Origin: Escherichia coli O157:H7
GTDB taxonomy: Bacteria > Pseudomonadota > Gammaproteobacteria > Enterobacterales > Enterobacteriaceae
NCBI RefSeq assembly: GCF_013167455.1
Contig: NZ_CP038328.1
Length of the DNA: 64,000 bases
Strand: one strand, 5' to 3'
Shown piece after piece: positions 3,123 to 6,100 of this stretch (the stretch's first letter is position 1; every line of letters starts with the position of its first letter). Position numbers: made by a program.

Positions 3123-6100
3123 TAATGTCAGGCACCTGAATCGATTGCCTGATGCTGATCGCCTGATGCGACGCTTACGCGTCTTATCAGGCCTACGAGC
3201 CAATGCCATTTTGTGTAGGCGGGATAAGGCGTTCACGCCGCATCCGGCATCACGCAGACTCTGAAACCGTGCGGGGGCAACCCCGCACACATCAATAATC
3301 CCACCCTTCCCCTGTGCTACACTTCGCGCCATTCCTTACTGCTTAGAGTTTGCTATGAGACGAGAACTTGCCATCGAATTTTCCCGCGTCACCGAATCTG
3401 CGGCGCTGGCTGGCTACAAATGGTTAGGACGCGGCGATAAAAACACCGCGGACGGCGCGGCGGTAAACGCCATGCGTATTATGCTCAACCAGGTCAACAT
3501 TGACGGCACCATCGTCATTGGTGAAGGTGAAATCGACGAAGCACCGATGCTCTACATTGGTGAAAAAGTCGGTACTGGTCGCGGCGACGCGGTAGATATT
3601 GCTGTTGATCCGATTGAAGGCACGCGCATGACGGCGATGGGTCAGGCTAACTCGCTGGCGGTGCTGGCAGTAGGCGATAAAGGCTGTTTCCTCAACGCGC
3701 CAGATATGTATATGGAGAAGCTGATCGTCGGACCGGGAGCCAAAGGCACCATTGATCTGAACCTGCCGCTGGCGGATAACCTGCGCAATGTCGCGGCGGC
3801 GCTCGGCAAACCGTTGAGCGAACTGACGGTAACGATTCTGGCTAAACCACGCCACGATGCCGTTATCGCTGAAATGCAGCAACTCGGCGTACGCGTATTT
3901 GCTATTCCGGATGGCGACGTTGCGGCCTCAATTCTCACCTGTATGCCAGACAGCGAAGTTGACGTGCTGTACGGAATTGGTGGCGCGCCGGAAGGCGTGG
4001 TTTCTGCGGCGGTGATCCGCGCATTAGATGGCGACATGAACGGTCGTCTGCTGGCGCGTCATGACGTCAAAGGCGACAACGAAGAGAATCGTCGCATTGG
4101 CGAGCAGGAGCTGGCACGCTGCAAAGCGATGGGCATCGAATCCGGTAAAGTATTGCGTCTGGGCGATATGGCGCGCAGCGATAACGTCATCTTCTCTGCC
4201 ACCGGTATTACCAAAGGCGATCTGCTGGAAGGCATTAGCCGCAAAGGCAATATCGCGACTACCGAAACGCTGCTGATCCGCGGCAAATCACGCACCATTC
4301 GCCGCATTCAGTCTATCCACTATCTGGATCGCAAAGACCCGGAAATGCAGGTGCACATCCTCTGATTGATTTGATCGATTGAGCCTTCCAGTCCTTCGGG
4401 ACTGGAATTTTTTTGTTCGGAGAACGAAGATAAGGCAATTCAATCAAAACAGGAGAAAAACATGGCTGATTGGGTAACAGGCAAAGTCACTAAAGTGCAG
4501 AACTGGACCGACGCCCTGTTTAGTCTCACCGTTCACGCCCCTGTGCATCCGTTTACCGCCGGGCAATTTACCAAGCTTGGCCTTGAAATCGACGGCGAAC
4601 GCGTCCAACGCGCCTACTCCTATGTTAACTCGCCCGATAATCCCGATCTGGAGTTTTACCTGGTCACCGTCCCCGATGGCAAATTAAGCCCACGATTGGC
4701 GGCACTGAAACCGGGCGATGAAGTGCAGGTGGTTAGCGAAGCAGCTGGCTTCTTTGTTCTGGATGAAGTACCAGATTGCGAAACGCTATGGATGCTGGCA
4801 ACCGGTACAGCGATTGGCCCTTATTTATCGATTCTGCAACTAGGTAAAGATTTAGATCGCTTCAAAAATCTGGTCCTGGTTCACGCCGCACGTTATGCCG
4901 CCGACTTAAGCTATTTGCCACTGATGCAAGAACTGGAAAAACGCTACGAAGGCAAACTGCGCATTCAGACGGTGGTCAGTCGGGAAACGGCAGCGGGGTC
5001 GCTCACCGGACGGATACCGGCATTAATTGAAAGTGGTGAACTGGAAAGCGCGATTGGCCTGCCGATGAATAAAGAAACCAGCCATGTGATGCTGTGCGGC
5101 AATCCACAGATGGTGCGCGATACGCAACAGTTGCTGAAAGAGACCCGGCAGATGACGAAACATTTACGTCGCCGACCGGGTCACATGACAGCGGAGCATT
5201 ACTGGTAAGCGGTTACTTATCGATAAACGGCACGATGAGCAAATCCGCACTCAACTTATTGATCATCCCGCGATATGCCGGCATCAAACGGTTGATAAAT
5301 GAGTGGTGATGACCACAGACAAGGAGGTCGCACTGCTCTTTTTGCATAATTTCCAGCAGTGTTTCCGGCATTTCTCCGCGTTCAATACGCAGTTTTGTCT
5401 TCGGCCATTGAATATTTTTCGTCAGTTTATACAGCTTGTTATCCGACTTATTCTTCAACAATTGAAGAATATCTTCTGTTGCAGGGAAGTAGATACCCGG
5501 ATACAACTCGCTTAAGCCATCATCAATATGAATTAACGTCAGGTGAGCGTCATTATGTCTGGCGAGCTCCAAGGCTTTATTCACCAGTAAGGCATCTTCT
5601 TCATTCCCGGAAATTGCCACGCCAATGTGTTTATAAGCCATGTTTAACTCCTTCTAAAGCAACTCCATCAAGCTAACGAACGCAGTGATAACTCAAAAAT
5701 AATCATCTCGGCCTGGCATGAGAAGGTGAAGGCCGCATCAAGCTCAACTTGCCCCTCCAGATCCTTAATCTTATAGGCCACGCTGGCCCCTTCATCTGCA
5801 GAGGATGCAGCGGCGGCAAGCTCTTTCAGTTTGGTCATAAAGGACTCTGCTTCTTCGCGGGTGGCAAAAAAGCGCGAAAACTTACTGGTACAGTTGTCGT
5901 TATCAATCACCGTACCGATATCAATCGCACATCCTTTAGTACTGCATTTATCTACGACATCTTTCATAGGGCACCTCTGTATATTCGCCTCTCTGTCGAT
6001 TACGACTTAAGAATAATGCGCCGTTAAGGGAAGAACAAACAAGTAATGATCTTATGGATTACCATTTTTTTTGATATTGCGTAAGGTGAAGAGTTCAGAA

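Follow-up and report, generated by a model that had tools for sequence, protein, structure and literature searches.

Overlapping ends of convergent genes are well described in Escherichia coli. Overlaps between convergent coding sequences have been counted at 58 (PMC2174442) or 75 (PMC4161906), the tetramers CTAA and TTAA along with CTAG and TTAG produce a jump at 4 bp in the distribution of overlap lengths, and some of these pairs have terminators within the coding sequence of the partner (PMC2174442). Convergent excludons, a concept from Listeria and Staphylococcus aureus, are likewise opposite-strand neighbours with overlapping transcripts, and ExcludonFinder (Sanmartin et al., Nucleic Acids Research 2025, PMC12288877) maps them in E. 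coli from transcript boundaries in 58 MG1655 RNA-seq data sets. Here we analyzed two tight convergent junctions, fpr/uspD and rhaT/rhaR, in a stretch of 64,000 nucleotides (nt) of E. coli O157:H7 (contig NZ_CP038328.1), which as a whole is called the window below. We conclude, with a probability of roughly 0.8, that both are ordinary compact convergent junctions whose transcript-stop signals lie within the coding sequence of the partner and act partly through Rho, the overlap of the transcripts being a by-product.

Annotation was taken from RefSeq NZ_CP022689.1, an O157 genome with 3 mismatches to the window over the first 50 kilobases (kb). The gene order in the window is zapB, glpFKX, fpr, uspD, yiiS, yiiR, yiiQ, tpiA ... 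sodA, rhaT, rhaR, rhaS, rhaBADM, and the gene ends at both junctions were the same in our listing of open reading frames (ORFs) and in the annotation of this near-identical genome. The two junctions are composed of the following features.

4462-5208, plus strand: fpr coding sequence (ferredoxin/flavodoxin-NADP+ reductase), TAA stop at 5206-5208; ORF list and RefSeq.
5209-5212, no strand: fpr/uspD spacer GCGG, the 4 nt between the stops; from the sequence, identical in K-12.
5213-5641, minus strand: uspD coding sequence (universal stress protein D), TAA stop read as TTA at 5213-5215; ORF list and RefSeq, with a PF00582 Usp domain in homologues.
18408-19442, plus strand: rhaT (L-rhamnose/H+ symporter), a pseudogene, TAA stop at 19440-19442; ORF list, RefSeq note 'internal stop'.
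19439-19442, no strand: TTAA tetramer common to the rhaT and rhaR stops; from the sequence, identical in K-12.
19439-20287, minus strand: rhaR coding sequence (AraC-family activator of rhaSR), TAA stop read as TTA at 19439-19441; RefSeq.

A preliminary description of the window had placed the fpr and uspD stops 4 nt apart and had rhaT and rhaR overlapping tail to tail by 4 nt, and both statements hold when the stops are read directly. With its TTAA, and a CTAA in a Citrobacter-type locus, rhaT/rhaR belongs to the class of short convergent overlaps (PMC2174442), in which the two stop codons share a tetramer of the form [CT]TA[AG]. In contrast, fpr/uspD has a gap of 4 nt and no overlap, so that it falls outside the tetramer class but on the same continuum of compaction. 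The geometry of both junctions is identical in K-12 MG1655 (RefSeq). A 1.3-kb stretch around the fpr/uspD junction is 100% identical in many chromosomes of E. coli O157:H7 and occurred in 5424 of the 5426 complete genomes of E. coli, and at least 5410 of the 5426 matched most of a 301-nt stretch at the rha junction at ≥95% identity. The frame of rhaR stays open further upstream to a GTG at 20398 (20288-20398, minus strand), overlapping the end of rhaS (20361); the codon at the RefSeq start of rhaR (20287) reads V in this longer ORF and is presumably GTG.

To locate the transcript ends at fpr/uspD, we used a published K-12 Term-seq and bicyclomycin experiment (Adams et al. 2021, PMC7815308, Supplementary file 1). 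The K-12 coordinates (uspD, 4113293-4113721, plus strand; fpr, 4113726-4114472, minus strand) could be mapped to the window because K-12 and O157 are collinear over fpr-uspD, with no indels and with 26 substitutions over 1180 nt. The file lists 4113600(-) as a 3′ end in the class antisense to uspD, with ~50,100 reads in lysogeny broth (LB) at an optical density (OD) of 0.4 and ~50,700 in LB at OD 2.0, and gives this position 3 times across its three sheets. This end maps to window position 5334, which is 126 nt past the fpr coding sequence and inside uspD. A second 3′ end, at 4113796(+) and assigned to the class antisense to fpr, had 1132 reads and appears only in the LB OD 2.0 sheet. It maps to position 5138, which is 75 nt past the uspD coding sequence and inside fpr. 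From these mapped K-12 ends, the fpr and uspD mRNAs overlap by 197 nt. The preliminary description had deduced convergent read-through and antisense overlap of the 3′ ends from the geometry, and both Term-seq ends are indeed located beyond the fpr/uspD junction; sharp ends ahead of the overlap were not seen there in the published K-12 data. The transcript features at this junction are as follows.

5209-5334, plus strand: inferred 3′ untranslated region (UTR) of the fpr mRNA, antisense to the final 122 nt of the uspD frame; mapped K-12 Term-seq.
5138-5212, minus strand: inferred 3′ UTR of the uspD mRNA, antisense to the final 71 nt of the fpr frame; mapped K-12 Term-seq.
5142-5182, minus strand: terminator-like uspD hairpin within the fpr coding sequence, GACCCGGUCGGCGACG-loop-CGUCAUCUGCCGGGUC, after which UCUU stands at the mapped 3′ end.
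5301-5343, plus strand: fpr-sense stem (5301-5338) and run of five U residues (5339-5343) within the uspD coding sequence; fold -22.8 kcal/mol, z = -2.2.

Rho-termination regions defined with bicyclomycin lie beside both ends. One is at 4113576(-), window position 5358 (Rho score 3.65, p = 3e-18), and the other at 4113800(+), window position 5134 (Rho score 2.8, p = 1.2e-5; PMC7815308), so that in K-12 the increased read-through under bicyclomycin that marks Rho dependence was found at each side of the junction. Read-through at fpr/uspD is therefore limited, stopping at discrete sites 75 and 126 nt into the partner and within Rho-dependent regions. This arrangement resembles Rho-dependent termination of untranslated or antisense RNA past a stop codon: the bicyclomycin-sensitive regions are just beyond both mapped ends, and the ends lie at the feet of hairpins, as expected after exonuclease trimming. 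In the same table, cdh, yiiM, cpxA and zapB also have antisense Rho regions (PMC7815308), indicating that read-through into the convergent partner is common nearby and not peculiar to tight junctions.

The uspD end differs from this pattern in that it also resembles a weak intrinsic terminator, with a long hairpin and UCUU, and the mechanism there may be mixed. The hairpin at 5142-5182 has a folding energy of -22.8 kcal/mol (z = -3.45; 1 of 200 shuffles equally stable), is encoded by the fpr codons for ...ETRQMTKHLRRRPGH..., and has no more than UCUU(UC) behind it where the mapped end lies. On the other strand, the K-12 fpr end (5334) lies within the 3′ arm of the 5301-5338 stem, 5-9 nt before the U-run. 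Position 5306 within this stem is G in O157 and A in K-12; the G lengthens the stem to 13 pairs before the five U residues, whereas the A weakens the outer stem. To judge from this substitution, fpr termination may be more intrinsic in O157 than in K-12.

At rhaT/rhaR, the complete mRNAs of the two genes must overlap by at least 4 nt. The tables of PMC7815308, which cover K-12 in LB or glucose, hold no Term-seq or Rho entry for rhaT or rhaR, presumably because the genes are uninduced in these media. The signals at this junction were sought in the sequence, and two features were found.

19260-19438, minus strand: C-rich, G-poor stretch past the rhaR stop, a candidate Rho loading region by composition only.
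19459-19484, plus strand: 9-bp hairpin, GAUGACGCC / GGCGUCAUC, 17 nt past the rhaT stop in the rhaR codons M-T-P...W-R-H and without a U-tract.

RNA rich in C and poor in G is the composition that Rho favours. Past the rhaR stop in the rhaSR sense, the C fraction was 0.31-0.39 and the G fraction 0.14-0.24 in windows starting within the first ~120 nt. Downstream of the other three stops, the C and G fractions were 0.29 vs 0.23 for uspD, 0.29 vs 0.22 for rhaT and 0.236 vs 0.193 for fpr. The bias is thus clear past rhaR, moderate past uspD and rhaT, and weak past fpr. The hairpin at 19459-19484 could possibly act as a pause or an exonuclease stop. By folding energy, the rhaT-side region containing it (19443-19520; -23.7 kcal/mol, z = -1.7) was indistinguishable from shuffles, and so was the region downstream of rhaR (z = -0.4). 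The preliminary description had extended the read-through to this pair. That part stands to the extent that rhaT/rhaR is listed as an RNA-seq-defined convergent excludon in MG1655 (PMC12288877); read-through here rests on the geometry, the composition and this list.

In this strain, rhaT carries an in-frame amber codon (TAG, 18558-18560) at codon 51 and is a pseudogene in RefSeq. We take codon 51 to be TGG in K-12. The exact 61-nt amber allele occurs in 308 complete E. coli genomes out of the 5340 with a match; we presume these 308 to be the O157:H7 lineage. A truncated RhaT has been described in O157 strains that still use rhamnose, where the lesion was called a frameshift (PMC7354573), unlike the nonsense codon in the window. 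The amber codon should expose most of the rhaT transcript to Rho-dependent polarity, and we infer that less of it reaches rhaR than in K-12.

Compact and roomier junctions differ in where the stop signals are placed. The window contains 9 convergent junctions, with spacers of 38, 4, 54, 105, -4, 40, 49, 329 and 90 nt, of which 2 are tight. Bidirectional intrinsic terminators or repetitive extragenic palindromic (REP) hairpins in convergent spacers, for example in tpiA/cdh, do the same job of halting two converging transcripts, and they occupy spacers of 38-329 nt; the tight junctions differ in having no spacer hairpin, with the signals within coding DNA. In local folding, all 7 roomier spacers (≥38 nt) held a strong GC-rich hairpin of -22 to -28 kcal/mol. 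In contrast, the best local fold across the fpr/uspD spacer was -4.8 kcal/mol, with no hairpin, and the rhaT/rhaR overlap leaves nothing foldable. A bidirectional intrinsic terminator, with a GC-rich hairpin and flanking A- and T-runs, was found in neither tight junction. A consensus terminator scan of the window gave nothing relevant at these two sites, and no Rfam family matched them at the gathering threshold. The absence of any terminator-like site at either junction agrees with the preliminary statement that the spacers leave no room for a terminator. The consensus scan also missed the fpr-embedded uspD hairpin, whose loop exceeds the length and whose U-tract falls short of the quality that the scan rules demand. 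The roomier spacers are these.

40-77: spacer of a roomier convergent junction.
8195-8248: spacer of a roomier convergent junction.
15332-15436: spacer of a roomier convergent junction.
25534-25573: spacer of a roomier convergent junction.
32151-32199: spacer of a roomier convergent junction.
39959-40287: spacer of a roomier convergent junction.
59492-59581: spacer of a roomier convergent junction.

Two of these seven hairpins resemble REP or naRNA4-type elements, and a K-12 Term-seq 3′ end classed as both primary and antisense falls at the tpiA/cdh hairpin. Rfam matches at the gathering threshold elsewhere in the window were naRNA4 in the cpxA/yiiM spacer (15346-15423, plus strand) and in the rhaA/rhaD spacer (24268-24338, minus strand), a SECIS element in the formate dehydrogenase alpha-subunit gene (35017-35075, plus strand), STnc370 upstream of typA (62811-62879, minus strand), and ES036 between sbp and pfkA (10300-10341, plus strand).

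A UspD search of genome contigs returned only two Escherichia loci, and loci of other genera were therefore found from the contigs of Fpr and RhaT homologues. Among the UspD homologues, one contig was truncated (P0037) and one assembly was degraded (L009). The 4-nt uspD/fpr spacer is kept as GCAG in E. albertii and as GCGG in two Escherichia-type loci (L004, L006), and UspD is 85% identical in one Escherichia-type locus that keeps it. Between fpr and yiiR, the yiiS-uspD pair is missing from a Salmonella-type, a Klebsiella-type, a Kosakonia-type and another Enterobacteriaceae locus (L015-L019). In the last three, fpr and yiiR are spaced by 0 nt (TGA|TCA or TAA|TCA). In the Salmonella locus, fpr converges on yiiR (DUF805) across a 106-nt spacer (L015:3248-3353) with a REP-like palindrome (GCCGGATTGCAGGTCGCGCCTTATCCGACC...); the same junction was thus widened independently in Salmonella. 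The GC content is 43% in uspD, 47% in yiiS and 37% in the yiiS-yiiR spacer, compared with 53% in fpr (window 5213-6178). Most simply, the Escherichia lineage would have gained yiiS-uspD by insertion at a junction whose width is 0 nt in 3 of the 4 other loci.

Matches to UspD at 55-57% identity were rejected as orthologous junctions, being paralogous DUF406+Usp pairs in other contexts. These pairs of a YiiS-like DUF406 gene and a Usp paralogue (L010-L013) occur beside IS66/IS1 transposase genes and downstream of a sulfite-reductase-like operon. Their placement suggests that the pair moves as a cassette.

The fpr-embedded hairpin kept 91% of its pairs across nine sequences from five genera, with one compensatory change, and its covariation was not significant in these nine sequences (61 of 500 shuffles), which gives no ground for claiming selection on the structure. 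Here uspD may have taken over an old terminator, or the hairpin may simply follow from conserved amino acids. At the rha junction, the 4-nt overlap is kept as TTAA in the Salmonella-type locus and CTAA in the Citrobacter-type locus and is replaced by a 5-nt gap in the Klebsiella-type locus; the sequence of the 19459-19484 hairpin is kept in the first two loci and not in the third.

Taken together, the data fit ordinary compact junctions best. Because the stops nearly touch (fpr/uspD) or interlock (rhaT/rhaR), the stop signals are inside the coding sequence of the partner. In K-12, both fpr and uspD mRNAs cross the junction into untranslated antisense RNA, which would become exposed to Rho once the ribosome departs at the stop codon. 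Rho, the embedded hairpins and 3′ exonuclease trimming back to stable stems would then set the two ends. The stop of the uspD transcript is probably aided by the fpr-embedded hairpin, with the end placed just after it, and the K-12 fpr transcript ends at the foot of the smaller hairpin inside uspD. The two mRNAs would then be complementary to each other over 197 nt at their 3′ ends. The same logic would apply to rhaT/rhaR, with the C-rich, G-poor tract after the rhaR stop. Most probably, the overlap is tolerated as a side effect of compaction, and any mutual interference is modest at most. Tight pairs make up, by a rough estimate, ~10-15% of the ~600 convergent pairs genome-wide, so that 2 in 9 is unremarkable, and the two tight junctions in the window represent no excess over chance or routine genome compaction.

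Several points weigh against this conclusion. The transcript data are all from K-12 in LB or M63-glucose and not from O157. The fpr 3′ end may in principle belong to a separate antisense RNA and not to the fpr mRNA. Rho scores span 800-nt windows and do not pinpoint the release site, and the excess of C over G past the fpr stop is weak. The conservation of the fpr-embedded hairpin is inseparable from that of the Fpr protein. Finally, the rha genes were not expressed in those K-12 cultures, and the case for their junction is built on geometry, composition and a single RNA-seq-based list.

A regulatory role of the overlaps is possible but unlikely. It would mean that the 3′ complementarity was selected so that one gene represses its partner, through transcriptional interference or RNase III, with reciprocal tuning of the oxidative-stress gene fpr and the stationary-phase gene uspD, or of rhamnose uptake and its regulators. 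In PMC12288877, both pairs are among the 165 convergent excludons of MG1655, the authors tie uspD and fpr to oxidative stress, and excludon pairs as a class have shorter spacers and higher synteny. No other convergent pair common to K-12 and the window is on the MG1655 list; only the tight pairs of the window are listed, which fits the reported shortness of spacers. The overlapping transcripts that characterize a convergent excludon are also found in the K-12 literature, with 197 nt at fpr/uspD and both pairs listed. The fpr 3′ end is abundant (~50,000 reads under either of two conditions) and is entered in all three sheets, and the rhaT/rhaR overlap is conserved across genera. However, mutual exclusion through interference or RNase III defines the excludon class, whereas for both pairs here the overlap follows trivially from the geometry, and the call becomes near-automatic with a 4-nt spacer or a coding overlap once both genes are expressed. 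No reciprocal expression, RNase III product or phenotype is reported for either pair in the literature read; PMC12288877 offers no pair-specific functional test and states that validation with p19, which captures double-stranded RNA, failed for E. coli convergent excludons in general. The adjacency of uspD and fpr is confined to Escherichia-type loci and evolutionarily recent, so that there is no ancient coupling. At the other junction, rhaT and rhaSR are co-induced by rhamnose, as is well established, and this is a poor fit to mutual exclusion.

There is little likelihood that head-on collisions of RNA polymerases at hairpin pauses in the overlap are the main driver of termination, with neither Rho nor classical intrinsic terminators. 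A bidirectional-terminator model of this kind was reportedly put forward by Ju et al. in 2019. Wang et al. (bioRxiv 10.1101/2022.10.23.513370) put collision forward for hundreds of convergent pairs in E. coli whose 3′ ends overlap and whose overlap contains a hairpin, and fpr/uspD has both overlapping ends and hairpins at both ends of the overlap. These terminators are described as Rho-independent (bioRxiv 10.1101/2022.10.23.513370), whereas both fpr/uspD sites lie in bicyclomycin-sensitive regions, so that the pair does not qualify as an overlapping bidirectional terminator of this type. In addition, the uspD end appears only in stationary phase (~1,100 reads), against a steady ~50,000 reads at the fpr end, indicating that fpr termination seems independent of opposing uspD traffic. 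An artefact of annotation or gene calling, in which one of the stop codons would not be a real protein end, is rejected as very improbable: nothing specific favours it beyond the fact that rhaT is indeed not intact in this strain, the stop codons are unambiguous, the O157 and K-12 RefSeq annotations agree, and the C-termini are kept in other species (Fpr AEHYW* in loci of five genera, UspD PFIDK*, RhaT GMA[NS]*, and RhaR).

Tight convergent junctions are thus an ordinary, well-described outcome of genome compaction, antisense 3′ overlaps at such junctions have been recorded across the genome, and the two pairs are already named in the literature. Their value is that of a worked example: where there is no spacer, E. 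coli puts the signals for transcript ends in the coding sequence of the neighbour, partly through Rho, with antisense 3′ overlaps as the result. The fpr/uspD junction is also an evolutionary curiosity, since the two-gene yiiS-uspD insertion would have left a 4-nt spacer beside the fpr-embedded hairpin, where three related loci have 0 nt. It is doubtful, but conceivable, that this hairpin, lying within the final 70 nt of the fpr frame, is an old selected terminator for the convergent gene, which is yiiR in most Enterobacteriaceae and became uspD in Escherichia once yiiS-uspD had been inserted, and that the abundant 126-nt fpr 3′ UTR is a cis-antisense regulator of uspD. If so, this UTR would link the SoxRS-driven induction of fpr to UspD output under oxidative stress, and a regulatory overlap at fpr/uspD would add one more stress-linked antisense pair.

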